DNA of 64,000 nucleotides from the NCBI GenBank assembly GCA_049325295.1, contig JBMOMD010000043.1, positions 11,578 to 75,577 on the forward strand, in the 5' to 3' direction. Made by a program: the position numbers and the translations under genes. Each line of letters begins with the position of its first letter. The stretch's first letter is position 1. Positions 1,069-45,744 of this stretch are shown piece by piece. This stretch comes from Nitrospirota bacterium. Lineage in GTDB: Bacteria; Nitrospirota; Nitrospiria; 2-01-FULL-66-17. Below the pieces are notes generated by a model, which ran no database searches, was not told the DNA's origin, and was given only the letters and a program-made list of their open reading frames with translations.

Positions 1069-1864
1069 CGTGGGCCGCGCCCCCGCGTCGGTAGCGGCCG
1101 TTCCGTCGGGCGACACGCTGTCGGCGGTGGGACTGGAAAAAACCTTTCGGCGCCGCCGCGTGGTCAAGGGCGTATCCGTCACGATCAGGCCGGGGGAGGT
1201 CGTGGGGCTGTTGGGACCGAACGGCGCGGGCAAAACCACGGTCTTCAACATGATCGTGGGGCTCATCACGCCCGATCGGGGCGACATCGTGTTGAACGGC
1301 CGCTCGATCACCGCGTTGCCCATGCACCAGCGCGCGCGTCTTGGGTTGAGTTACCTGCCGCAGGAAGCCTCGGTGTTCCGCAAACTCACCGTGGCCGAGA
1401 ATATCCTGGCGATCCTGGAAACGCTGCCGATGCGGCGGGAAGAGCAGCGGGCGCGGTTGGAAGAACTGCTCGAAGAGCTGGGGGTGGCGCACCTGGCCGA
1501 GCAAAAGGGGTATACGCTGTCGGGCGGCGAGCGGCGTCGGGTCGAGATCGCCCGGGCGTTGGTTTTGTCGCCGCGGTTCGTGCTGTTGGACGAGCCGTTC
1601 GCCGGGATCGATCCCTTGGCGGTCGCCGACGTGCAAAAGGTCGTGGCGCACTTGCGCGACCGCGGCATCGGCGTGTTGATCACGGATCACAACGTGCGCG
1701 AAACGCTGGAAATCACCCGGCGGGCGTATATTATTAACAGCGGCGAGATTCTCCAGGAGGGCACGCCCGTGGAAATCGCGGAAAGCCCCCGGGTTCGCTC
1801 GCTGTATCTGGGCGAGCATTTCGCCTGGCAACGATCCTCAGCCGGCCAGGAGGCCAATCGGTGA
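1058..1864 (+). CDS. lptB: LPS export ABC transporter ATP-binding protein LptB
   Basis: Walker [10 protein letters not shown] and ABC signature [15 protein letters not shown]. Stop overlaps the rpoN GTG start (GTGA). Confidence 0.9.
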
Positions 1865-3327
1865 GACCGCGTTTGGAGCTGCGGCTCCAACAAAAGCTGG
1901 TCATGACGCCGCAGTTGCAGCAGGCGATCCGCCTGTTGCAGCTTTCCCGATTGGAATTGAGTCAGACCGTCTCGCACGAGCTGATGGAAAATCCGGTGCT
2001 GGAGGACGAGCTGTCGCAGGAAGGGCCCGAGGAGGAGGCCCCGAGCGGGGACGAGTCGCCCGCCGTGAAGACCGAGGCCGACGCCGAGGCGTCCGCGCCG
2101 GAGGCCAAGGAAAGCGCCGAGCTCGATCCGCAGGAGTTCAACTGGGACAGCTATTTCGACCAGGATGACTTCGGCCTGTCCGGAGACGGCGACTACGCCA
2201 GGGCGTCGTCCGAGGACATGCCGTCGTTCGAACAGACGCTCAGCAAGGCCGTGTCGCTGGAAGAGCACTTGTTGTGGCAATTGCGCCTGTCGAGCGTGCC
2301 GGAGGAGGACCGGCGGGTGGCGGAAGCGATCATCGGGAACGTGGACGACGACGGGTACTTGCGGGTCACGCTCGATGAGATCGCGCACAGCCTGAACTGC
2401 CCGGCGGCGACCGTGGAGCGGGCGCTCAAGTTGGTGCAAGGTTTCGACCCGCTCGGCGTGGCCGCGCGCGACCTCCGGGAGTGTTTGTTGATTCAGACTC
2501 GTCAGCTCGGGTTGCACGGCTCGCTCGTGGAATCGATCATCACCCACCACTTGCCGGACCTGGAAAAGAAGCGGTTCGCCGCGATCGCCAAGGCGTTGGG
2601 GGCGACGGCGGAAGAGGTGTTTCACGCCGCCAAGGTGATCGAACACCTGGAACCGAAACCGGGGCGGCCGTTCGCCGTGTCCGACAACGTCTACATCACG
2701 CCGGACGTGTTCGTGGTCAAGATCGAGGGCAAATACGCGGTCCTGCTCAACGACGACGGCATGCCGAAATTGCGGATCAACCAGTATTACCGTCGTCTGC
2801 TCAAGAACAAGACGCCGGGCGTGGACACCACCAAGACGTATCTCGAAGACAAATTGCGGTCCGCGTTGTGGCTGATCCGCAGCATCGAGCAGCGCAACCG
2901 CACGATCGTGCGCGTGGCCGAGAGCATCGTGAAGTTCCAGTACGAGTTCATGGAACAGGGCATCAACTATCTCAAGCCGTTGATCCTCAAGCAGGTCGCG
3001 GAGGACATCGGGATGCACGAGTCCACCATCAGCCGCGTGACCACGAATAAGTACATGTATACGCCGCAGGGGATCTTCGAGCTAAAGTTTTTCTTTAATA
3101 GCGGAATCGCCCGCACCCAGGGCGGCGGCGAGGACTTGTCCTCGGTCACGGTGCGCGAGCGCATCCGGCTGTTGGTGGCGAACGAAGATCCGCGACGCCC
3201 CATGACCGACCACGAGTTGGTGGAACGCTTGTCGGCCGAGCAAATCGCCATTGCCCGGCGGACCGTGGCCAAGTACCGCGGGTGGCTGCGCATACCGCCC
3301 GCGAACAAACGCAAACGCGTATTCTAA
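1861..3327 (+). CDS. rpoN: RNA polymerase sigma-54 factor RpoN
   Basis: Full-length sigma-54 with the C-terminal RpoN box (ARRTVAKYR). Conserved position after lptB. Confidence 0.92.
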
Positions 3328-3516
3328 GGAGCCTGTCCATGAATGGCCATCTGCGGCGTTGTCAGTCGGTCTTGCGTGCTCACGGTTTTCGTAGGGGCGT
3401 ATTGCAATACGCCCCTACAGGCGCGCAAGACCTCCTTCCGCCTTGCGACCCACCTTTAAGAAATGAGGTGGCGGAAGTCCCCGAAGGGGGCATCTGGCCA
3501 TCCCTGAACAGGCTCC
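3328..3516 (+). repeat. Structured inverted-repeat element, copy 1 (189 bp). Carries an extra internal insert with the 28-bp perfect palindrome GTAGGGGCGTATTGCAATACGCCCCTAC.
   Basis: Starts 1 nt after the rpoN stop. Terminal arms GGAGCCTGTCCATGAATGGCCATCTGC and GCATCTGGCCATCCCTGAACAGGCTCC are inverted. Same family as the copies at 6205, 38042 and 45346. Confidence 0.7.
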
Positions 3517-3620
3517 GGTATCACAATACTCGGACACATTATATAAATTAAGATGCCCGGAAGGGATTTCCGGGTGGTTGACGCGAGAGTTTGATAACGG
3601 AAAAAGGAGAGGACGGCGCC

Positions 3621-4136
3621 ATGAAGACGACGGTCACAGGGCGGCACATTGAGATCACCCCGGCGCTGCGCGCCCACGTGGAAGAACGCGTTGAGCATCT
3701 GACGCGGTTTTCCGGAGACGTGGCGGACGCCACGGTCGTGCTCTCGGTCGAGAAGTACCGCCATCAGGCCGAAGTGTCGTTGAACGTCAACGGCGTGTTG
3801 ATCCAGGCCAAGGAAGAAACGTCCGAAATGTACGCGTCGATCGACGAGGCCGTGGCCAAGATCGAGCGCCAACTGAAAAAATACAAGGATCGTCAACACA
3901 CCCGTCGTCAGCGTCCCGCGGCGATCATCGGCGAGACGGAACCCGTCGAGTCCGCGCCGGAACCGCTGGAGCGCGAGCGGCCGAAACTTCGGTCCATGAC
4001 GCCGGAGCAGGCGTCCGCGGCGTTGGACGGTGGGGAGACGCCGGTGCTCGTATTTCGTCACGCGGGCACCAAGGAGACCAACGTGGTGTATCGACGGGCC
4101 GACGGTTCCGTGGCATGGATCGACCCCGCGCCGTAG
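3621..4136 (+). CDS. hpf: Ribosome hibernation promoting factor (long HPF / sigma-54 modulation protein)
   Basis: MKTTVTGRHIEITPALR... is a typical HPF/RaiA N-terminus. RBS AGGAGAGG precedes the ATG at 3621. The longer ORF-track start at 3591 is rejected. Confidence 0.85.
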   Translation: MKTTVTGRHIEITPALRAHVEERVEHLTRFSGDVADATVVLSVEKYRHQAEVSLNVNGVLIQAKEETSEMYASIDEAVAKIERQLKKYKDRQHTRRQRPAAIIGETEPVESAPEPLERERPKLRSMTPEQASAALDGGETPVLVFRHAGTKETNVVYRRADGSVAWIDPAP

Positions 4137-6204: not shown

Positions 6205-6326
6205 CAGGCTGCTGAAAAAGTCCATCTGCTGCGTTGCCGCTGCGCATCCGCTGCTCACGTACGACCCAGTACGCTGCGCTGCGGTGCTCGCGGCTGCCTT
6301 GCATCTGGAGCTTTTTGAGCAGCCTG
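6205..6326 (+). repeat. Structured inverted-repeat element, copy 2 (122 bp)
   Basis: Starts 3 nt after the TAG stop of the 5666..6202 gene. Arms CAGGCTGCTGAAAAAGTCCATCTGC and GCATCTGGAGCTTTTTGAGCAGCCTG. Core shared with copies 3 and 4. Confidence 0.7.
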
Positions 6327-6373
6327 CCGGCTTCGCCGGGATTCAAGAGATCAACTGCGGATTCTTTGCGGCC

Positions 6374-14716: not shown

Positions 14717-14742
14717 AAGACTTCTCATCCGGAGTGGGTGGA

Positions 14743-16080
14743 ATGCTGTCACGGCAGCAGAGTCCACAATCCTCGGGCACGACCTCCTCGCCAAAGCGCG
14801 GCGAGACTCCGAAGTCTCCTGCCTCCACGATCGAGATCAGCCAAGGGCAATCCGGGCGGCTCATCGTGCGCGTGCCGTACACCGCGGAGCGCGTGGCCAA
14901 GATCAAATCTATCACCGGCCGCCAGTGGCATCCGCAGGAAAAGTACTGGTCGGTGCCGCAGTCACCCCAAGCCGTCAACCGTCTGGTGGCTCTCTTTGGC
15001 GGAGAGCGTGTTTCGCTCCTCCCGCCGCTCGACGCGCCACCAATCCAGGATGCCCAGGGGCCGCCCGCGCCACCGGCCTCTCGTCAATCGACGGGAACGA
15101 CCGCCGGGCTTCTCGACGATGTGCGTCGTACGATCCGCAGCCGGCACTACAGCCGACGGACCGAAGAAGCCTATCTGGGCTGGATTCGGCGGTTCCTGCG
15201 GTTTCATGACCAACGTGATCCCGCACAGATGGCTGCCCCGGAGGTATCGCGCTTTCTCAGCACGCTGGCAATCGAGCGCGACGTGTCCGCCTCCACGCAA
15301 AACCAGGCCTTGGCCGCCATCCTCTTCCTGTACAAGGACGTGCTCGACCGCGACCCCGGATGGGTGGAAGGCGTGGTGCGCGCCAAGCGTCCGCAGCGCC
15401 TTCCGGTCGTGCTCTCCAGGCAGGAGGTCCAAGGCCTCTTGTCGGCGCTGCAAGGCGTGCCGTGGATCGCGGGGACCCTGCTCTACGGCGCGGGACTTCG
15501 TCTCATGGAGTGTCTGCGCCTGCGCGTCAAGGACGTGGACTTTGCCCGAGGAGAGATCGTGGTGCGCGAAGGGAAGGGCGGCAAGGACCGGGTCACCATG
15601 CTGCCGTCGGCCGCGGCGCCCAAACTCCGCGCACACCTGGACCGGGTCCGCAAACAGCACACGGCTGACCTGGCCGCAGGCTTCGGCCGGGTCTGGCTGC
15701 CAAACGCCCTAGCCCGCAAGTACCCCAACGCGGACCGCGAGTGGGGGTGGCAGTGGATCTTTCCGGCATCGACCATCTCAGTGGACCCACATAGCGGGGA
15801 GCGACGACGGCACCACCTGCACGAGTCCGTTCCGCAGCGTGCCATCCGCGAGGCCCGGCTCCGTGCTGGGATCACGAGACCCGTCGGTCCTCACACGTTG
15901 CGGCACTGCTTCGCCACGCATCTCCTGGAGTCCGGCCACGACATCCGCACCGTCCAGGAACTTCTCGGCCACAGCGACGTAAGAACCACCATGATCTACA
16001 CCCACGTCCTCAACCGCGGCGGCCTCGGCGTCCAAAGCCCGGCCGACCGGATTCTTGGAGGAGGCAGCGATGAGCGTTAG
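14743..16080 (+). CDS. intI: Integron integrase IntI (tyrosine recombinase with the IntI-specific additional domain) carrying a ~120 aa N-terminal extension
   Basis: [42 protein letters not shown]... matches the IntI-specific insertion. The C-terminal [39 protein letters not shown] is near-identical in pattern to IntI1, as recalled from memory. ATG at 14743 after RBS GGAGTGGGTGGA. Confidence 0.85.
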
Positions 16081-16250
16081 GACGCAGAATTTGTCGTATA
16101 ACATCACTTAACCATCGCTTAATGGAAATCGAGAAAACTGTTGGATTGTTTAATTAATCTGTGGAATAATTCACCATCGTCCTGATCTTGTTAGGACGCA
16201 GTTCTTGCCGTAGTTGCTGAATTCATTAGGACGTCTAATTTTAGTTGGGC
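16076..16250 (+). other. attI-like region. Direct repeats GTTAGGACGCAG (16076-16087, 16190-16201), ATTAGGACGTCT (16225-16236), and core GTTGGGC (16244-16250) at the cassette junction. AT-rich, with a candidate Pc promoter TTGGAT-N17-GAATAAT (16141-16170).
   Basis: GTTRRRY-type integrase-binding half-sites are repeated downstream of the intI stop. Crossover G|TT lies at 16244/16245, where the cassette-1 ORF region begins. Confidence 0.5.
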
Positions 16251-16256
16251 GCCAAT

Positions 16257-17258
16257 ATGACTGAGCGCATCGCTATTGCCGGTGTCTCCGAGCGAGACGT
16301 AGATCTTCTATTGTTGGAGGAGTTTCAGTCTTCCAGCGACTTTCAAGGCTGGTTTGTACGAGAAGCGTTCGGCCCCGACGTTGACTTTGGGCAGTGCACT
16401 GGAGCAAGACGATCAATCACGAACTCTACGGGCGAATCGGATCTCGAGATCTTCTTTGCGAACTCCAAAGGTGAGAAGACCCGGCTCTTGATAGAGAACA
16501 AGGTAAACGCCGGTTTTCAACCACTTCAGGCTGAGCGGTACAAGGAGCGAGGGCTGGGCTACGTTTCTACAGCCCAATGCAACTCCTTTCGAACGGTACT
16601 CATAGCTCCAGCTCGCTACTTCGGTGAATCGGCTTCCCGCAAGGGTTTCGATGGGCGCGTTTCGTATGAGCAGATTCTTCGTTGGTTCGGAGAAGCGGTG
16701 CAACTCGGCGAGAGGCGTCAATACAAAGTCGCATTACTAAGGTCGGCCATTGACAAGGGCACGCTCGGGTACCAACCAGAAGAAGACAAGCCGACAACAG
16801 CGTTTTGGAAGGCGTACTGGCGCTTCGCGCTCGATCGGGCTCCCGAGCTTGAAATGCCGGAGCCCAGTGCAAAACCATCCCGCTCCAGCTTTGTCCATTT
16901 CAGGCCCCGTACTCTGCCGCGCTCGGTAGACATCGTCCACAAGTTCGCATTCGGTCACGTTGATCTGCATTTGCGCGGCATGGGCAAACGTCTTAACGAG
17001 GTGCGCGTTGCCGTGCGACCTTATCTGGCTCCTGCCATGACTGTCGCGGCGGCAGCGAAATCAGCGGCGATACGTATCGAAGTCCCGAAACTACGCGTCA
17101 CGGCGCCATTTGAGGCGCAAACACCAGAGGCAGAACTTGCCCTCGATGCAGCAAAGCGGTTGCACGTATGGTTTATCGACAGCAACGATTTCGCTACGTG
17201 GTTGGTTGGCGCCCAACAATCGGTTGCAGGCGACGCGCCGCGAGCGGCACGTGCCTGA
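16257..17258 (+). CDS. Cassette-encoded PD-(D/E)xK nuclease-superfamily protein of unknown function
   Basis: ~52% GC against a ~67% background. Motif GESDLEIFF...LLIENK (D...ExK) with upstream E/D residues. No RBS, which is common for cassettes. Bounded by GTTGGGC cores. Confidence 0.6.
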   Translation: MTERIAIAGVSERDVDLLLLEEFQSSSDFQGWFVREAFGPDVDFGQCTGARRSITNSTGESDLEIFFANSKGEKTRLLIENKVNAGFQPLQAERYKERGLGYVSTAQCNSFRTVLIAPARYFGESASRKGFDGRVSYEQILRWFGEAVQLGERRQYKVALLRSAIDKGTLGYQPEEDKPTTAFWKAYWRFALDRAPELEMPEPSAKPSRSSFVHFRPRTLPRSVDIVHKFAFGHVDLHLRGMGKRLNEVRVAVRPYLAPAMTVAAAAKSAAIRIEVPKLRVTAPFEAQTPEAELALDAAKRLHVWFIDSNDFATWLVGAQQSVAGDAPRAARA

Positions 17259-17273
17259 ACCGAAGCGTTGGGC
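17211..17273 (+). other. attC recombination site of cassette 1 (63 bp)
   Basis: GCCCAACAATCGGTTGCAGGCGACGCGCCGCGAGCGGCACGTGCCTGAACCGAAGCGTTGGGC. R''=GCCCAAC and R'=GTTGGGC, with imperfectly complementary L arms and bulged bases. Strongly resembles aadA-type attC, recalled from memory. Confidence 0.65.
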
Positions 17274-17290
17274 GCCATAACAGAAGAACC

Positions 17291-17644
17291 ATGAACGTTC
17301 GCATTGCGACAACCGATTCCGAGATTGCCATCTGCTATCCAGTAATGCGGGAGCTTCGTCCGCACATCGCGGAAGAGCGATTTCTCTCCCGGATCCGGAG
17401 TCAAGAAGGTGCAGGCTATCGGCTCGCCTATGTGCAAGAACCAAATGGCGTAGTTGCGGTTGCTGGATTCCGAGTCGGTGAGAATCTGGCTTGGGGGCGT
17501 TTTCTGTACGTCGATGATCTTGTAACCCTTCCCGCACACCGATCAAAGGGCTATGGTGCCAAGTTGCTTTCGTGGCTCAAAGAACAAGCCGCAAAGGAAG
17601 GTTGTGAGTGCTTGGTCCGGGGTCGGACCCGCGCAATGTGTTGA
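17291..17644 (+). pseudogene. GNAT family N-acetyltransferase, 3'-truncated by insertion of the RAYT/IS element
   Basis: GNAT motif A (HRSKGYGAKLL) is present. The protein ends 9 aa after GCECL, with the beta5-beta7 region missing. The sequence diverges exactly where the element's inverted repeat begins (17614). ~53% GC. Confidence 0.55.
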
Positions 17645-18551
17645 AAAGTCATCCGCCTTTGGGCACAATGAGGCCGCTGGAGGTCTTGGATCGCACGTTG
17701 TAGAGCCAAAACTACGCTGCAGGGAGGAAGCGTCATGCCGCGCGCCCATCGCTATTTTCTTCCCCATCACATCTGGCACATCACGCACCGGTGTCATCAA
17801 CGGGCGTTTCTCCTGAAGTTCGCGCGTGACCGCCGGCGCTGGCGGCAGTGGCTGTTTGAGGCCACGAAGCGGTTTCGGCTGTGTGTGCTCAATTACGTCG
17901 TCACGTCCAACCATATTCATCTCTTGGTCCGGGATCAGGGGCGAGGCGAGATCGCGCGCGCGATGCAGCTCATCGCGGGACGCACGGCCCAGGAATACAA
18001 TCAACGCAAAGGGCGACAGGGAGCGTTCTGGGAGGATCGGTATCATGCCACGGCGGTCGACACGGAGAGCTACCTGGCCCGCTGTCTGGTCTACATTGAT
18101 CTGAACATGGTGCGGGCGGGCGCCGTGGCGCACCCGCGTGACTGGGACGCGGGCGGCTATCACGAGCTGCATGCGCCACCCACGCGGTACGCGATCATCG
18201 ATCAGCCGGCGCTCACCGAGTTGCTCGGCCTGAAGAGTCTCCAGCAACTACAGGAGACTCACGCGCTGTGGATCGAGGAGGCGATCCGGGCGGGAGGTGG
18301 ACCACGCGATCCGATGTGGACCGAGAGCGTGGCGGTCGGCCGCGCCGAGTTCGTGCGAGATGTCCAGGTCGAGCTGGGGAGCAAGGCGCGATATCGGGAG
18401 GTCGTGGCCGAAGGACAGGCGCACGTGCTGCGCGAACCGCCGACCCTCTACGGGGCATTTTGACGGGCAAAAGGCCGCGCGAAGGGCTCAACCGTCCGCC
18501 GTGGCGGACCAAAACCTCGAGACATCAATCGATTGCGCTGGTCCGACCCCG
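17614..18551 (+). mobile_element. RAYT / IS200-IS605-like element bounded by 12-bp inverted repeats CGGGGTCGGACC (17618-17629) and GGTCCGACCCCG (18540-18551)
   Basis: Left end GGTCCGGGGTCGGACC is itself a hairpin. A second GTCCGCC-gt-GGCGGAC hairpin sits at 18494-18509. Inserted inside cassette 2. Confidence 0.5.
17735..18463 (+). CDS. Y1 HUH transposase, REP-associated tyrosine transposase (RAYT / IS200-like TnpA), 242 aa
   Basis: HUH motif SNHIHLLV and the catalytic-Y helix VYIDLNMVRAGAV (YIxxNPVRAGLV-like). N-terminus HIWHITHRCHQRAFLL matches the Transposase_17 family. Confidence 0.75.
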   Translation: MPRAHRYFLPHHIWHITHRCHQRAFLLKFARDRRRWRQWLFEATKRFRLCVLNYVVTSNHIHLLVRDQGRGEIARAMQLIAGRTAQEYNQRKGRQGAFWEDRYHATAVDTESYLARCLVYIDLNMVRAGAVAHPRDWDAGGYHELHAPPTRYAIIDQPALTELLGLKSLQQLQETHALWIEEAIRAGGGPRDPMWTESVAVGRAEFVRDVQVELGSKARYREVVAEGQAHVLREPPTLYGAF

Positions 18552-18844
18552 AGCGACACCCCGAGCGACTCCCCCGCTGGCGCAGACCGCCTGGCTGCCC
18601 GTGCTCCGGGCCCTGGGGGCGCGCGCGTGGTTCGGCGAGCAGCTCTACGTCGCGGGCGCGGGCCAGGTGTTCGACGCGCACGGCCGGCTCGTCGATGAGA
18701 GAATCAGAACACTCCTGACCGAGTTCATGGCGGGCTTTACCGCATTCGTGAACGTCAAATGAGTCCTGAGCGACTCGATCGACGGACGTGCCGCGGTGGG
18801 GAAACGGCGCGCGAGGGACCATCACGTTAACCGGGAGGTGAGCC

Positions 18845-19273
18845 ATGCTGTTGGGATTCTTGGATCGCTACCGCGACTACGGACCGCTCTGTCTTCGCAT
18901 CGCACTCGGCCTCGTGATGATGGGGCACGGCAGCCAGAAATTGTTCGGCGCGTTCGGCGGGGGCGGTTTGTCGGGTACCGCGGGGTTCTTTGATCAAATC
19001 GGACTCGCGCCGGGCCTGTTCTGGGCCACGGTGGCGGCGATCGTGGAAACCTTCGGCGGGCTCTTGGTCTTCATCGGATTGCTGACGCGCGTGGCCGGCG
19101 TGTTGATCGCGATCACCATGTTCGTGGCCATGGTGTGGGTCCATCTGCCGAACGGGTTCTTTCTCCAAAATAAGGGGATCGAGTTCACCCTGGTCCTGTT
19201 CAGCATGGCCACGGCGCTGGCGCTGACGGGCCCGGGCGCGGTGTCGGCCGACGCCATGGCCACGAAACGGTGA
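18845..19273 (+). CDS. DoxX family membrane protein
   Basis: DoxX-like TM pattern (GLVMMGHGSQKL...FFDQIGLAPGLFW). RBS GGAGGTGAG. Confidence 0.75.
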   Translation: MLLGFLDRYRDYGPLCLRIALGLVMMGHGSQKLFGAFGGGGLSGTAGFFDQIGLAPGLFWATVAAIVETFGGLLVFIGLLTRVAGVLIAITMFVAMVWVHLPNGFFLQNKGIEFTLVLFSMATALALTGPGAVSADAMATKR

Positions 19274-19297
19274 TTGCTTTCACGAGGGAGGTGATCC

Positions 19298-19666
19298 ATG
19301 AAGGTGATCGAGATCGCGTTTACCGGGTATCCCGTGACCGACCTCAAGCGCGCGCGGAAATTTTATGAGGGCGCGCTGGGCTTGACGGTCGGCAAGATGT
19401 TCGGCGATGAGAACCAGGCGTGGGTGGAATACGACATCGGGCCCGGCACGCTCGCCATCGGCAATATCGCGCCGGAATGGAAACCCTCGCCCAACGGCGG
19501 GTCGATCGGACTGGAAGTGGATGACTTCGAGGGCGCAATCAAACGGCTCAAGCAGCTCGGCGTCACGTTCGCGGTCGAACCCATGGAATCGCCGGTCTGC
19601 CGCATGGCCGTGATCTCGGACCCCGACGGCAACTCGGTGACCATTCACAAGCGCAAGGCCAGATAA
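19298..19666 (+). CDS. VOC (glyoxalase/bleomycin-resistance) family protein
   Basis: Small VOC-fold sequence (YPVTDLKRARKFYEGALGL...). Confidence 0.72.
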   Translation: MKVIEIAFTGYPVTDLKRARKFYEGALGLTVGKMFGDENQAWVEYDIGPGTLAIGNIAPEWKPSPNGGSIGLEVDDFEGAIKRLKQLGVTFAVEPMESPVCRMAVISDPDGNSVTIHKRKAR

Positions 19667-19739
19667 CGCGAGCGAGGGGATGACGGTTCGCGACATGGGG
19701 CAAGGTTCCCTTCCCTCCCGCGTGTTTGGCCTTTGATCA

Positions 19740-20126
19740 ATGCGCGTCGCCTGGGAGGATGCGATCAGACGCGGTGACGTCCGGACCGTTTGCGAGCTCA
19801 TTGCGCGCGGCGTGGACGTCAATGCCCGCGATCGGTACGGACAGACCGGTCTGATGCTGGCCGCGCACGCCGGGCATCGCCGGATCGTGGAAACGCTCAT
19901 CGCGCATCGGGCCGATCCGAACGTCACCGCCAAGTTCGGGTTGAGCGCGTTGATGTTGGCGGTTGTGGCCGGGCATCCGGACATTGCGCGCCTCTTGGCG
20001 AAGGTCGGGGCCGATCTCGCGTTGCGGGGAACCGGGGCTCCTGGCTTCGCCAACAAGACCGCCTATGATTTGGCGGTCGAGCGCGGCATGTCGGAGGTAT
20101 CCGCTGAATTGAAGCCCGAACCGTAA
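19740..20126 (+). CDS. Ankyrin repeat protein
   Basis: ANK repeats (GQTGLMLAAHAGHRRIVETLIAHRADPN...). Confidence 0.7.
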   Translation: MRVAWEDAIRRGDVRTVCELIARGVDVNARDRYGQTGLMLAAHAGHRRIVETLIAHRADPNVTAKFGLSALMLAVVAGHPDIARLLAKVGADLALRGTGAPGFANKTAYDLAVERGMSEVSAELKPEP

Positions 20127-20141
20127 ACCAAGGACGGCGCG

Positions 20142-20744
20142 ATGACGTCAGACTCTGAGCGACGCGCGGAATACGAGCGGTTCAAGCGGATCGACGCGGC
20201 GTTTCGCGCGGGTGATCTGGCCGCGTTGCGGGCCGCGGTCGATGATCCGGCGGCCGTGCCGAACGGACCGATGCCGTTGACCATCGGCTCCTGCCTCGAA
20301 TACGCGATCTACCACAGCCCGTTGCCGTTCATCCGCGCGCTGCTGGAGATCGGCGCGGATTCCAACCCCGCGGACCACGCCGGGTTTCCGCCCTTGATCG
20401 CGGCCTTGTCGTGCGGCCGCGCACAGCCCGGCGCGCCCGGTCGATCGGACGTCATGGAGGTCATGAAACTTTTGCTCGCGTTCAGGTCCGACCCCAACCA
20501 ACGCGGGATCAACGACTATACGCCGCTGCACATGGCGGTCAGCGAGCGGAATCTGCCGGCAATCGAACTCTTATTGGTCTCAGGCGCGGACCCGCGGCTG
20601 CGCACCCGGATCGACGAGCGCGAAACCCCGCGCGAGATGGCGGAGAAAGCCGGATCTCGCGACATCGCTCGGCTGCTTGCGAGTCACGAGGCGGCGCGCC
20701 GGGGTGAACCCGGTCCCGCCGACACGTTCAACGAATCACGTTGA
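20142..20744 (+). CDS. Ankyrin repeat protein
   Basis: ANK repeats (YTPLHMAVSERNLPAIELLLVSGADP). Confidence 0.7.
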   Translation: MTSDSERRAEYERFKRIDAAFRAGDLAALRAAVDDPAAVPNGPMPLTIGSCLEYAIYHSPLPFIRALLEIGADSNPADHAGFPPLIAALSCGRAQPGAPGRSDVMEVMKLLLAFRSDPNQRGINDYTPLHMAVSERNLPAIELLLVSGADPRLRTRIDERETPREMAEKAGSRDIARLLASHEAARRGEPGPADTFNESR

Positions 20745-20792
20745 CCCATCCGGTCGTGTCCGGTTTCGCGGACGCGTTGTGCGGCATCGCAC

Positions 20793-20822
20793 TTTACCTG
20801 TTTGTCGGGCCCGTGGTATAAG
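20793..20822 (+). promoter_or_regulatory. Promoter-like motif TTTACC-N17-GTATAAG(CGCGGCATGC). One of two near-identical copies; the other is at 26677.
   Basis: Shares CGTG(G/T)TATAAGCGCG(G/C)CATGC and a TTTAC(C/T) -35 at identical spacing with 26677-26706. Confidence 0.45.
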
Positions 20823-20857
20823 CGCGGCATGCGCGTCCGTTCCCCCGGAGCAGCGGC

Positions 20858-21307
20858 ATGAGCCTGCGTTGGTTGCGGCGGATCGGCGTTCACCTGGTGA
20901 CGGTGCTCGTTGGTCTCTCGACCGCGGGCGCCGCGGTCGACGCCAAGCTCGGACTGCCGACCCCGATCACGACCGGGCTGGCCGATTACGCGTTCCAGGG
21001 AGCGGACGCGGCGGTCAAGGCGTGGGCCAAAGGCAGCGCGCGGGAGGGGAGTCCTGAAACCTCGATTCAAGTCAACTACTTGAAACACGTTGAAGCGATG
21101 TACGGGAAGTTCCAGAGTTATCATCTCGTCCAAGTGCATGCGCTCTCGCCATTGACCCTCATCGTGTACCTGACCATCAACTACGAGAAGGGACCGTTGT
21201 TTGCCCGGTTCCTGTCCTACCGCATCAGAAACGATTGGGTGCTGCCGGAGTTCAGCTTCGACACCAAACCCGAGGCGATTTTCCCGCCCGAGTTGTTGGC
21301 GGACTGA
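20858..21307 (+). CDS. Hypothetical secreted protein (signal peptide)
   Basis: N-terminal hydrophobic signal sequence. RBS GGAGCAG. No family recognised. Confidence 0.45.
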   Translation: MSLRWLRRIGVHLVTVLVGLSTAGAAVDAKLGLPTPITTGLADYAFQGADAAVKAWAKGSAREGSPETSIQVNYLKHVEAMYGKFQSYHLVQVHALSPLTLIVYLTINYEKGPLFARFLSYRIRNDWVLPEFSFDTKPEAIFPPELLAD

Positions 21308-21346
21308 CGCCGCGCTTCGGCGAGGGAACGGGACACGCGTTCGACG

Positions 21347-21541
21347 ATGACCCTGTCGGCAGACCAGTGGAAAGAGTGGATTGTTGCGGCCGTCGTGATC
21401 ACGGCCGGGGGCGTCGTTCTCGCCGTGGTCGGGTCGTTACGCGGCTACGACGGAATCGCACGAGTCGGAACCGTGACGGCGTTCGGAGGGTTCATTCTGT
21501 TTCTGGTCGCGCGTATCCGGTATTCCCGCTGTCGCCGATGA
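21347..21541 (+). CDS. Small hypothetical 2-TM membrane protein (64 aa)
   Basis: Two hydrophobic helices. Weak evidence only. Confidence 0.3.
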   Translation: MTLSADQWKEWIVAAVVITAGGVVLAVVGSLRGYDGIARVGTVTAFGGFILFLVARIRYSRCRR

Positions 21542-21585
21542 CGCGGTTCCCCACATCCGGTCGGCGCCGGGCGTTCGGAGGATGA

Positions 21586-22002
21586 ATGGCCGGGTGGGAG
21601 CTGTTTCAGCACGGCGCGGACATCGGCGTGCGGGGCATCGGTCGATCCAAGGCCGAAGCCTTTGAACAGGCGGCAATGGCGCTCACCGGCGTGGTGACTG
21701 ATCCGGCGACCGTGGCGCCGAGGGACGTGGTGGAGATCACGCGCCGGGAGGCCGACGAGGAGTTGCTGCTGGTGGACTGGCTCAACGCCCTGGTGTACGA
21801 AATGGCGACGCGCCGGATGCTGTTCAGTCGGTTCGAGATCACCGTGGAGCGCGACACGTTGCGCGCGAAAGCCTGGGGCGAGGCCGTGGACGTGGCCAAA
21901 CACCAGCCGGCCGTCGAGGTCAAAGGCGCCACGTTCACCGAGCTGCGCGTTCGCCGGGATCAGGACGGCGCCTGGACCGCCCAGTGCGTGGTGGACGTGT
22001 AG
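21586..22002 (+). CDS. Archease (RtcB activator)
   Basis: Archease-length protein, N-terminus [17 protein letters not shown], directly upstream of rtcB. RBS GGAGGA. Confidence 0.85.
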
Positions 22003-22009
22003 CCGGTCG

Positions 22010-23452
22010 TTGGAGGCACTGATGGAACTCGCGCAACTGATCCGACAATCCGAGACCGAATGGCGGATCCCGCCGAGCGGGACGATGCGGGTCCCGGTGA
22101 TCATCTACGCGACCGAATCCCTGATGCGGGAGATGGATCAGAAGGTCTACGAACAGGCGGTCAACGTGGCCGCGCTGCCGGGGATTGAAAAGGCGTGTTA
22201 CGTGATGCCCGACGCGCATTGGGGCTACGGCTTTCCGATCGGCGGCGTCGCGGCCTTTGATCCGGATCGCGGGGGCGTCATCTCGGCGGGCGGGGTGGGT
22301 TTTGATATTTCCTGCGGAGTCCGCGCATTGGTGACCGGCATGACGCGGGAGACGATCGCGCCGGAGCGGGAGCGGTTGGCCGAGGCCTTGTACCGCACGG
22401 TGCCGGCCGGCGTGGGCAGCCGGGGCAAGATCCACCTGAGCTCCCACGAGATGGACGAGATGTTGCTGGGCGGCGCCGGTTGGGCGGTGGGGAAAGGGTA
22501 CGGCCGTCCGGAAGATTTGGAGCGAATTGAAGAGCGCGGACGCATGGACGGGGCGCGGCCCGATCAGGTGTCCGAGTTCGCCAAAAAGCGCCAACAAGAC
22601 GAGATGGGCACCCTGGGCTCGGGCAATCACTACTTGGAAGTGCAGGAAGTCCGGGCCGTGTACGACGCGGAATTGGCCGCGGTGTTCGGAATTCGCCAGG
22701 GCGACGTGGTGGTGAGCATCCACTGCGGCTCGCGCGGCCTGGGCCATCAGATCGGGACCGAGTTTTTGAAGAAGATGCTGCCGGCGGCCGCGCAAGCCGG
22801 CATCGAACTCCCGGATCGCGAGCTGGCCTGCGCGCCCATCCGGTCGGACGTGGGGCAAGCATACCTTGGGGCGATGCGCGCGGCCACCAACTGCGCGCTG
22901 GCCAACCGGCAGATCATCACCCACCTGGTGCGCCAGGCGTTCGGCCGGGTGTTCCCTTCCGCGGAGCTTCGATTGCTCTACGACGTGTCCCATAACACCT
23001 GCAAGGTCGAAACACACGTCGTCGACAACCGGCCTAAACGCCTGTTCGTGCACCGCAAGGGCGCGACCCGCGCCTTCGGTCCCGGGCATCCGGACATTCC
23101 GCCAGCGTTGCGCGCGGTGGGACAACCGGTGTTGATCGGCGGCACCATGGGCACGGCGTCGTACGTTCTGGTGGGAACCGGCCAGGGAGAGGAGCGATCC
23201 TTTGGATCGGCCTGCCACGGCGCGGGGCGGAGCATGAGCCGGCACCAAGCCACGAAACAATGGCGGGGACGCGACTTGATCGACGCCTTGGCCGCCAAGG
23301 GCGTGTTGATCCGCAGCCCCTCCTACCGCGGCGTGGCCGAGGAAGCGCCGGGCGCGTATAAAGACGTGGACGCGGTGGTGGACGCCGCGGATGAGGCCGG
23401 ATTGGCTCGAAAGGTGGCCCGGCTCGAGCCGATGATCTGCATCAAAGGATAA
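22010..23452 (+). CDS. rtcB: RNA-splicing ligase RtcB
   Basis: RtcB signature (MPDAHWGYGFPIGGVAAFD...HNHY...). 480 aa. Confidence 0.92.
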   Translation: MEALMELAQLIRQSETEWRIPPSGTMRVPVIIYATESLMREMDQKVYEQAVNVAALPGIEKACYVMPDAHWGYGFPIGGVAAFDPDRGGVISAGGVGFDISCGVRALVTGMTRETIAPERERLAEALYRTVPAGVGSRGKIHLSSHEMDEMLLGGAGWAVGKGYGRPEDLERIEERGRMDGARPDQVSEFAKKRQQDEMGTLGSGNHYLEVQEVRAVYDAELAAVFGIRQGDVVVSIHCGSRGLGHQIGTEFLKKMLPAAAQAGIELPDRELACAPIRSDVGQAYLGAMRAATNCALANRQIITHLVRQAFGRVFPSAELRLLYDVSHNTCKVETHVVDNRPKRLFVHRKGATRAFGPGHPDIPPALRAVGQPVLIGGTMGTASYVLVGTGQGEERSFGSACHGAGRSMSRHQATKQWRGRDLIDALAAKGVLIRSPSYRGVAEEAPGAYKDVDAVVDAADEAGLARKVARLEPMICIKG

Positions 23453-37393: not shown

Positions 37394-38041
<648 letters not shown>

Positions 38042-38166
38042 GAGCCCGTTCGGGAAAGGGCCATCTGCGGCGTTGGCGCTGCGCTTCCGCTCCTCACGTA
38101 CGCACTCCGTACGCTCCGGTGCGGTTCTCGCGCCGCCTTGCATCTGGACCTTTCCTGAACGGGCTC
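38042..38166 (+). repeat. Structured inverted-repeat element, copy 3 (125 bp), located between pyrR and pyrB
   Basis: Starts 1 nt after the pyrR TGA. Arms GAGCCCGTTCGGGAAAGGGCCATCTGC and GCATCTGGACCTTTCCTGAACGGGCTC. Confidence 0.7.
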
Positions 38167-38192
38167 CGTCGTATGGTCAGGTGGAAAGGCTC

Positions 38193-45342: not shown

Positions 45343-45345
45343 CGA

Positions 45346-45469
45346 GGAGCCTGTCCATGAGCGGCCATCTGCAGCGTTGTCGCTGCGCTTCCGGTCCTCA
45401 CGTACGACCCAGTACGCTCCGGTCCGGTGCTCGCTCCGCCTTGCATCTGACCGCTCCTGAACAGGCTCC
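45346..45469 (+). repeat. Structured inverted-repeat element, copy 4 (124 bp)
   Basis: Starts 4 nt after the greA TAA. Arms GGAGCCTGTCCATGAGCGGCCATCTGC and GCATCTGACCGCTCCTGAACAGGCTCC. Confidence 0.7.
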
Positions 45470-45744
45470 ACACTGGGTTACTCCTCTCGGCTCCTAGAGC
45501 GTGGATTGGTCTCGGTTCCGTCTCGGGTTGCACCTCGCGCTGGGCTCGCGGCGCTTCGGCGTGAACGGCCGTCTGCGCGAGCCGTTCGATTCGCTCATGA
45601 TCAGACCCTTGTTCGGTTTTGGATGGAGCCTGCTCTTGCGGCCGTGGGCGTGGCCCGCGGCGTGGCGCGTCATTCGTTGGCGGATGGACACCGCGGGCTG
45701 GACGTGAGGTCCCGAATCCGGATGGCCGAGCCGTCGTCACGCCC

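Follow-up and report, generated by a model that had tools for sequence, protein, structure and literature searches.

A probable TIRtron abuts the remnants of two unrelated genes beside an integron of a Nitrospirota bacterium

The DNA that we analyzed, which we will call the window, is a stretch of 64,000 nucleotides (64 kb) from contig JBMOMD010000043.1 of a Nitrospirota bacterium. It contains a short integron. Where the second gene cassette of this integron breaks off, there is an intact gene for a Y1 HUH protein, which lies between inverted repeats, and directly after the right-hand repeat is the 3' end of a reductase gene. A preliminary description of this DNA had recognized that the cassette, which encodes a GNAT acetyltransferase, is truncated. 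It proposed that the Y1 HUH gene encodes a RAYT that is flanked by repetitive extragenic palindromes (REPs), or else that it belongs to an atypical insertion sequence (IS). We will argue that the gene and its repeats probably form a TIRtron. The features of the element, all on the forward strand, are:

17618-17644, forward strand: left terminal inverted repeat, with the core GGGTCGGACC at 17620-17629; conserved in 48 loci

17735-18463, forward strand: intact gene for a TIRYT/RAYT-like Y1 HUH protein of 242 amino acids (aa); the HUH motif is H60-I-H62 in SNHIHLLV, and Tyr120 is in YIDLNMVRAG

18444-18486, forward strand: imperfect palindrome over the stop codon (fold z = -2.7; the family pattern is CTTA..TTTT..AAAA..TAAG)

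18525-18551, forward strand: right terminal inverted repeat, with the core GGTCCGACCC at 18540-18549; conserved in 48 loci

The ends of the element

The 12-mer CGGGGTCGGACC is at 17618-17629, within GGTCCGGGGTCGGACC (17614-17629), and its reverse complement is at 18540-18551. The two copies bracket the open reading frame (ORF) of the 242-aa Y1 protein, as the preliminary description had stated. The description also recommended a search for other copies of the 12-mer. When we searched the window, the only exact copies were the two at the ends of the element. The full inverted repeat is longer than 12 nucleotides (nt): 17618-17644 and 18525-18551 form a pair of 27 nt with 23/27 matches (85% complementary). 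In 300 shuffles of both 150-nt flanks, the best pair had 20/27 matches, and none contained an exact 12-mer.

The alignments of the element to its closest DNA relatives end near these repeats. (We label the comparison loci L001, L002, and so on.) L002, which is 91% identical to the element, and L004 and L005, which are 77% identical, align to 17611/17620-18549, and then the similarity stops. The alignment of L001 (91% identical) covers 17620-18513; since it stops at 18513, the right end of L001 has diverged, and this locus is not informative there. L003 (92%) is an 802-nt contig that lies wholly within the element, so it is not informative about the boundaries. Where there is enough flanking DNA to compare (L001, L004, and L005), the flanks are unrelated: L001 has a HigB/HTH (helix-turn-helix) pair and L004 has a DUF433 gene. 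L002 and L003 include hardly any flanking DNA. The element spans about 17611/17618-18551, or about 0.93 kb.

The ends are also conserved across more distant relatives. We scanned genomes for the family, with one genome per species, and we examined the best 80 loci. In most of the 80 loci, GGTCGGACC is found about 114 nt before the ATG and GGTCCGACC is found about 85 nt after the stop codon. The core GGGTCGGACC is found at a distance of about 114 nt from the ATG, on its 5' side, in 48 loci that represent many phyla, and the complement of the core follows the stop codon at about 85 nt. The consensus of 96 ends is (c)(g)GGGTCGGACCa.g.tAAct..tTGAttt. Beyond position -3 of these 96 ends, the information content is zero, which implies that no target motif is conserved outside the ends. 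The 9-mer core does not occur in 414 kb of unrelated integron loci. Judging from these sequence comparisons, the element is a discrete unit: it measures about 930 bp and has inverted repeats of about 26 nt at its ends.

The Y1 HUH protein and its relatives

The 242-aa protein matches Y1_Tnp in Pfam, with 48.3 bits (the cutoff is 23), and its HUH and tyrosine motifs are invariant in 30 homologs. Its best match in NCBIfam is to REP_Tyr_transpos, with 69.3 bits, which is below the equivalog cutoff of 80. The score for NF033573 (transpos_IS200) is 28.1 bits and does not reach the cutoff of 55. The AlphaFold model of the protein has moderate confidence (mean pLDDT of 68.6) and contains a beta-alpha-beta-beta-alpha-beta-alpha core. 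The top match of this model in PDB is TnpA-REP from E. coli (4ER8; E = 6.4e-6, TM score of 0.68 on the target), and the next matches are the transposases of IS608, IS200, and ISDra2. Searches of the sequences in PDB, either with phmmer or with a profile of 30 sequences, found no Y1 protein, and the link to 4ER8 comes from the fold comparison only. In the C-terminal 107 residues, we found no similarity to Bac_DnaA_C, HTH_23, or HTH_28 from Pfam, even at E<=10. There is no tnpB beside the gene.

A class of elements with a similar organization was described by Di Nocera, De Gregorio, and Rocco in 2013 (PMC3733652). In the passages of that paper on TIRYTs, these are RAYT-like genes with long terminal inverted repeats instead of REPs; the protein is termed TIRYT and the unit is termed TIRtron. 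The same passages state that the distance between the repeats and the coding sequence is roughly constant, give a motif (GGGGWSAS) that some of the repeats share, and report that the repeats are moderately abundant in some genomes (as singles, dimers, or clusters) and absent from others. The element in the window has a RAYT-like Y1 HUH gene, long inverted repeats whose distance from the ORF is nearly constant, a GGGG-rich start, and no GTAG tag. Its core, GGGGTCGG(ACC), agrees with GGGGWSAS at 7/8 positions, with a G where an A is expected; as presented in those passages, the motif is not obligatory.

The classification by Quentin, Siguier, Chandler, and Fichant (2018; PMC6006769) provides another comparison. 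In its sections on these proteins, TIRYTs are "probably" subclass 2.1 of TnpA-Y1, which is equated with group 1 of Bertels. The proteins of subclass 2.1 have a median length of 238 aa, their genes have no REPs in the vicinity, and a genome contains on average 1.9 divergent copies. The window protein resembles this subclass in its length (242 aa), its N-H-u-H and W-E motifs, its C-terminal extension, the absence of REPs, its low copy number, and its wide and patchy taxonomic distribution. The TIRtron arrangement that the element matches probably corresponds to subclass 2.1. Two features of the protein differ. In subclass 2.1, the C-terminal extension has HTH-like similarity (to Bac_DnaA_C, HTH_23, or HTH_28), which we did not detect in the window protein; the protein may belong to subgroup 2.1.1, whose description in those sections is limited to a "conserved C-term extension." The tyrosine motif in the window is Y-I-D-L-N-M, and Met125 is invariant in 30 homologs, while Table 1 of PMC6006769 gives Y-x3-N-P for all of the RAYT-like (class 2) proteins.

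One of the loci in our scan, L064, also contains a canonical TIRYT. This protein has 285 aa and a weak match to HTH_23; it is of the GGGGTCAG type, and its repeats read GGGGTCAGGTC. It is just 31% identical to the window-type protein over the Y1 core. Because of this difference, we place the element in the window as a member, and possibly as a distinct subgroup, of the known kind. The TIRtron is a known, little-studied kind of element, and the element in the window is probably neither a REPtron nor an IS200.

Hairpins, palindromes, and other kinds of Y1 elements

The preliminary description had noted GTCCG...CGGAC hairpins at both ends of the element. Both are present. The left hairpin, GGTCCG-GGGT-CGGACC (17614-17629), is more stable than shuffled sequences (z = -2.7). 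The right hairpin is GTCCGCC..GGCGGAC (18494-18509), and its region is no more stable than shuffles (z = -0.5). Both hairpins are common only to the closest relatives, and when we ran RNAalifold on alignments of 39 left ends and 39 right ends, we found no conserved stem in the repeat regions. As far as the alignments go, the GTCCG...CGGAC hairpins are confined to this lineage and do not characterize the family.

The family does have an imperfect palindrome of 40 nt, CTTAG..TTTT..AAAA..CTAAG, which is found just 5' of the ATG and again over the stop codon. The 3' arm of the palindrome that precedes the ATG takes in the ribosome-binding site. In the window, this ATG-side copy folds at z = -0.5. 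We quantified covariation for the copies upstream of the ATG only, and it is modest: the proportion of cells that pair is 70.5%, while it is 67.1% for shuffles and 52-57% for slid controls. The score for covariation, 0.215 as compared to 0.166, was reached by 0/500 shuffles. These 40-nt palindromes could be DNA hairpins that are recognized by the Y1 enzyme, or they could be RNA structures that control expression, as in IS200.

We considered whether the locus might instead be a REPtron, that is, a domesticated and single-copy RAYT that lies between two inverted REP/REPIN hairpins and disperses REPs, in which case the truncation of the GNAT cassette would be unrelated. The top structural match (4ER8) and the best NCBIfam model (REP_Tyr_transpos) both point in this direction. 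Like TnpA-REP, the window protein has the HUH motif and a single tyrosine, and inverted copies of its presumed substrate bracket the gene. Also, the left end folds as the 16-nt hairpin GGTCCGGGGTCGGACC (z = -2.7), no genome recurs among the best 80 loci, the protein has no matches on plasmids, and solo copies of the end motif are found near the gene in about a quarter of the loci. Nevertheless, we think that a REPtron is unlikely. The score for REP_Tyr_transpos is below its cutoff (69.3 versus 80), there is no sequence-level match to TnpA-REP, and the window protein has about 100 extra residues at its C terminus. The REP-RAYT-REP arrangement of the preliminary description does not describe the flanking repeats, which are terminal and inverted, span about 26 nt each, and have an invariant GGGTCGGACC core whose distances from the ORF are fixed. 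Their consensus is not self-complementary, yields no stem with RNAalifold, and has no GTAG or CGTC tag. The window contains no solo or other extra copies of the repeat, and no second Y1 gene. Furthermore, as discussed below, it is the whole unit of 930 bp, and not just a short repeat, that recurs in new contexts and in nested copies, and there are gene fragments on both sides that abut the edges of the repeats.

A classical insertion sequence of the IS200/IS605 type, whose apparent inverted repeat would be a coincidence of subterminal hairpins, is very improbable. It would fit the match to Y1_Tnp, the Y1 HUH fold (as in IS608 and ISDra2), and the imperfect 40-nt palindromes by the ATG and over the stop codon, which recall the end hairpins of IS200; the element-sized contigs from metagenomes are IS-like as well. 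But the terminal inverted repeats, which elements of this type lack, are real and have a conserved core, and there is no tnpB adjoining the gene. At 242 aa, the protein is about 90 residues longer than expected (~152 aa), it scores below the cutoff for NF033573 (28.1 versus 55 bits), and it has Y-x3-N instead of the Y-x3-Q that is listed for subclass 1.1 in PMC6006769.

Distribution of the family and signs of mobility

More than 8000 proteins in the databases are related to the Y1 protein from the window, and many of them are encoded on contigs of just 0.9-1.5 kb. The 80 loci from our scan are from Gammaproteobacteria, Nitrospirota, several delta-proteobacterial lineages (including Desulfobacterota), Binatia, Bacteroidota, Planctomycetota, Zetaproteobacteria, and others. 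Protein identity across these loci is 52-80%. In about 25/80 loci, a contig ends next to the element.

Besides these contig breaks, several observations are signs of mobility in the family. First, the unit recurs in unrelated contexts at around 90% DNA identity. Second, some loci contain nested, partial, or tandem copies. L043 (1189-1845) has a left end with codons 1-104, then a left end with codons 1-35, and then a full element; L045 (2455-2802) has a partial copy upstream of a full element; and L087 (3001-4584) has two full elements that adjoin each other. In L022 and L078, there are units of 240-340 bp that are bounded by inverted end motifs, similar to miniature inverted-repeat transposable elements (MITEs). 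In Thioalkalivibrio (L057:1891-4944), the 117-nt left end is present in three additional copies within 6.7 kb. Third, in L064, the left end of a window-type element adjoins a gene fragment, 28 codons from the N-terminal part of an ApbA-like ORF.

Fourth, short tandem duplications are common at the outer edges of the repeats. Of 95 ends, 17 (18%) have a tandem duplication with a period of at least 8, as compared to 16 of 2268 windows taken at random from these loci (0.7%; p = 3e-16, Fisher exact test). The duplicated unit often takes in the last few bases of the repeat. L001 and L002 have a common left flank, and they have different duplicated bases there. These duplications may be the mutational footprint of nicking or slippage at the ends, although this mechanism is a conjecture. 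The TIRYT and TIRtron passages of PMC3733652 mention neither end duplications nor nested copies nor an interrupted integron cassette, and the corresponding sections of PMC6006769 do not mention the duplications either.

More speculatively, TIRtrons of the GGGTCGGACC type might be autonomous and currently active, with the Y1 enzyme acting at the outer edge of inverted repeats of the double-strand style, and with the duplications, the nested fragments, and the truncated genes as its footprint. We hold this view tentatively and would not be surprised if it proved wrong. If it is true, then these observations would be the first genomic evidence for the transposition of TIRYTs, and they would locate the site of cleavage.

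Beyond these cases, duplications at the ends with periods of 6-20 nt are visible in L026, L029, L058, L063, L064, L067, L075, L078, L088, and others. L064 contains two different TIRtrons in tandem between attC-like sites (1433-4021), and different Y1 subfamilies also adjoin each other in L063, L080, L031, and L055.

Truncated genes on both sides of the element

The features at the edges of the element are:

17268-17608, forward strand: cassette 2, of which the 5' part is left, with codons 1-106 (of about 156) of a GNAT acetyltransferase gene; it matches Acetyltransf_1 in Pfam (positions 18-96 of 116)

17609-17619, forward strand: junction bases TGCTTGGTCCG, which are the outer arm of the left hairpin; partly common to L002 (by alignment; the blastn match starts at 17611)

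18546-18569, forward strand: 12-nt tandem duplication (ACCCCGAGCGAC x2), a direct repeat that straddles the right edge of the element

18553-18762, forward strand: 3' remnant (about 69 codons, from a GATPG motif onward) of a gene for an NAD(P)H-dependent FMN reductase, identified from named homologs

Cassette 2 is part of an array that is headed by intI and attI, and it begins at 17268 with a crossover between G and TTGGGCGCC (17267/17268). The name "GNAT cassette" in the preliminary description is correct, because this start has the TTGGGCGCC junction beside the preceding attC. The GTT crossover junction is also present 5' of the intact homologous cassettes in L006 and L007.

The GNAT ORF (17291-17644) runs into the element, which contributes 11 foreign codons at its end. 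The protein is 93% identical to P0121 (156 aa), and the similarity ends after residue 106 (KEGCE). The preliminary description had raised the possibility that this GNAT belongs to a family with a short C terminus. Its nearest homologs (77-93% identical) have 137-184 aa, and mostly about 156, so the GNAT in the window is not full length. At the DNA level, the window is collinear with the intact cassettes in L006, L007, and L008 from the preceding attC crossover to 17608, and it is unrelated to them beyond that. The truncation that the description placed at 17614 is therefore real, but the homology ends six bases earlier. In the intact cassettes, the ORF continues for about 140 nt, and an attC overlaps with its 3' end; the window lacks this attC and about 48 codons. 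In an alignment with YncA (3DR6), the truncated protein is without about the last 50 residues of the fold, from beta5 onward, as had been described. It is probably non-functional.

The preliminary description had also reported that the rest of the gene and its attC are not found downstream. Using tblastn, blastn, and a scan for the attC pattern, we confirmed that both are absent from the entire window. Since there is no attC downstream while the intact homologs carry one, the GNAT cassette is a remnant. The description's suggestion of a deletion or rearrangement becomes a requirement, since the rest of the cassette is missing. The 11 junction bases, TGCTTGGTCCG, resemble the inner part of the right end (TGCGCTGGTCCG), and this sequence similarity hints that they might be the remnant of a second end.

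On the other side of the element, the right repeat is followed immediately by DNA that is homologous to L091, and this homology begins exactly at 18553. The homologs of the reductase remnant are named as FMN reductases, and two of them contain PF03358. The remnant is weakly similar to residues 146-177 (of 193) of 1RTT. Both junctions are tight: the GNAT homology ends at 17608 and the reductase homology starts at 18553, which are 0-3 nt from the ends of the element.

Could the truncation of the GNAT cassette be independent of the element, with an ordinary illegitimate deletion in the array that ended at a resident and immobile TIRYT gene? Integron arrays are prone to deletions, we did not recover an empty site, and none of 80 other integron loci contains a TIRYT, which gives no indication of targeting; yet both junctions are within 0-3 nt of the outer edges of intact ends, which a random deletion would rarely achieve twice, the end-adjacent duplications and the nested copies show that the ends are active in recombination, and L064 is a second case of a gene fragment that abuts a left end, so we give this explanation little credence.

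The reductase homolog in L091 (5960-6220) is itself just a 3' fragment, with a 72-aa ORF that starts at GATPG. Its similarity continues in frame for about 40 nt further 5', and then the preceding gene cuts it off. All 12 relatives of the reductase fragment in the databases are short (45-102 aa), which could be a coincidence of short contigs or could reflect recurrent truncation.

How the locus may have formed

A single insertion cannot join the 5' part of one gene to the 3' part of another, so at least one event beyond insertion is required, and it must have ended precisely at an end of the element. In our judgment, it is likely that the element at about 17611/17618-18551 is a TIRtron with a TIRYT gene, that it came by transposition, and that a later event adjacent to an end trimmed its neighbors. 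After the arrival of the element, the Y1 protein would presumably nick and rejoin DNA at the edges of the repeats via a 5'-phosphotyrosine link. Such a link has been shown for TnpA-REP from E. coli and for TnpA from IS608. The further event next to an end would be either a deletion or recombination with a second copy, and through it the reductase gene would have lost its 5' part, and the integron would have lost the distal part of the GNAT gene, the attC of this gene, and whatever cassettes followed.

Several points weigh against this scenario. Some concern the identity of the element: the repeat fits GGGGWSAS at only 7/8 positions, the window has Y-x3-N-M where class 2 has Y-x3-N-P, and no C-terminal HTH was detected. 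Others concern its mobility. No genome recurs among the 80 best loci (there are nearby second copies in some of them), and a search of plasmids found no close relatives. Single copies and absence from plasmids fit a domesticated and mostly immobile gene as well as they fit a mobile one. The relevant parts of PMC3733652 and PMC6006769 indicate that transposition of a TIRYT has not been shown experimentally, and our literature search found no experimental study of TIRYT or TIRtron elements. Finally, we recovered no empty site or intact allele, and we infer the order of events, that is, of the insertion (into the GNAT or the reductase gene) and the deletion.

On balance, the locus is a clean example of a TIRtron, in that the exact ends of an intact unit meet pieces of two unrelated genes, and one of these pieces is from an integron cassette whose intact form is known. 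This is good circumstantial evidence, and it argues for recombinational activity of the whole TIRtron unit, or of its ends at the least, and against a gene that is simply domesticated. The consequences for this genome are small, namely that the GNAT cassette is dead and that the integron retains one complete cassette. For biochemistry, the 10-nt core that is invariant across phyla, the end duplications, and the nested copies are starting points.

When we looked for the same locus in related strains, we found only the same strain (L092). The best metagenomic relative of the integrase is just 73% identical. L092 corresponds to 17770-22740 of the window and is an independent assembly of the same strain (SRR32167792); it is 100% identical to the window. 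This contig ends 35 nt inside the Y1 gene, as might be expected if the assembly broke at a repeated or polymorphic element, although this is not proof.

Other repeats in the window

The window contains a repeat of about 125 nt in four copies (3327-3440, 6222-6330, 38041-38170, and 45345-45470), which is REPIN-like or MITE-like. We folded two of the copies, and each forms a long hairpin, with z = -7.3 (the copy at 38041) and z = -3.9 (the copy at 45345). The repeat has no match in Rfam, which found only a tRNA in the window, and we saw no cognate transposase in the window. The preliminary description had suggested that the Y1 gene is relevant to the origin of this palindromic family. The repeat shares no 8-mer with the inverted repeats, and the window contains no further copy of the inverted repeats, so the Y1 gene does not explain the four-copy repeat.

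The integron

The features of the integron upstream of the GNAT remnant are:

14734-16080, forward strand: integron integrase IntI (TIGR02249, 474.5 bits, cutoff of 265, residues 126-440; Phage_integrase and SAM_4 in Pfam)

16081-16244, forward strand: attI region, with repeated GTTAGGACGCAG-like boxes and a crossover between G and TTGGGCGCC at 16244/16245; from direct reading

16245-17267, forward strand: cassette 1, complete, with a PD-(D/E)XK-like ORF (probably 16255-17258) and an attC; PDDEXK_4 in Pfam, 24.1 bits; bounded by GTT crossover sites

17211-17273, forward strand: attC (R'' GCCCAAC ... R' GTTGGGC), from a scan for pattern plus fold; also seen as an inverted repeat

The attC at 17211-17273 is the only canonical attC that the scan for pattern plus fold identified on either strand of the window, and the integron is now left with one complete cassette. 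The junction GTTGGGCGCC of attI is found again at the attC crossover (17267/17268).

Two further relationships between the element and integrons were considered and rejected. TIRtrons do not seem to target integrons: 0/80 integron loci (414 kb) contain a TIRYT or the 9-mer. Conversely, among the roughly 80 TIRtron loci, the signs of integrons are the attC-like sites that flank the elements in L064, a distant attC-like site in L035, and a partial match to IntI in L077; the signs in L035 and L077 are weaker and are within a few kb. Nor is the element itself a cassette, as no attC follows it and the intergenic gaps downstream are too short.

As called, IntI has about 125 extra residues at its N terminus that lie outside the TIGR02249 model. 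At least part of this extension is real, because a 73%-identical relative (L093) matches from residue 27. The G+C content of the cassette part of the integron is 0.53-0.58, versus about 0.65 in the rest of the window. IntI is encoded in the same orientation as the cassettes, with attI 3' of intI, which is the "inverted" layout (14734-16245).

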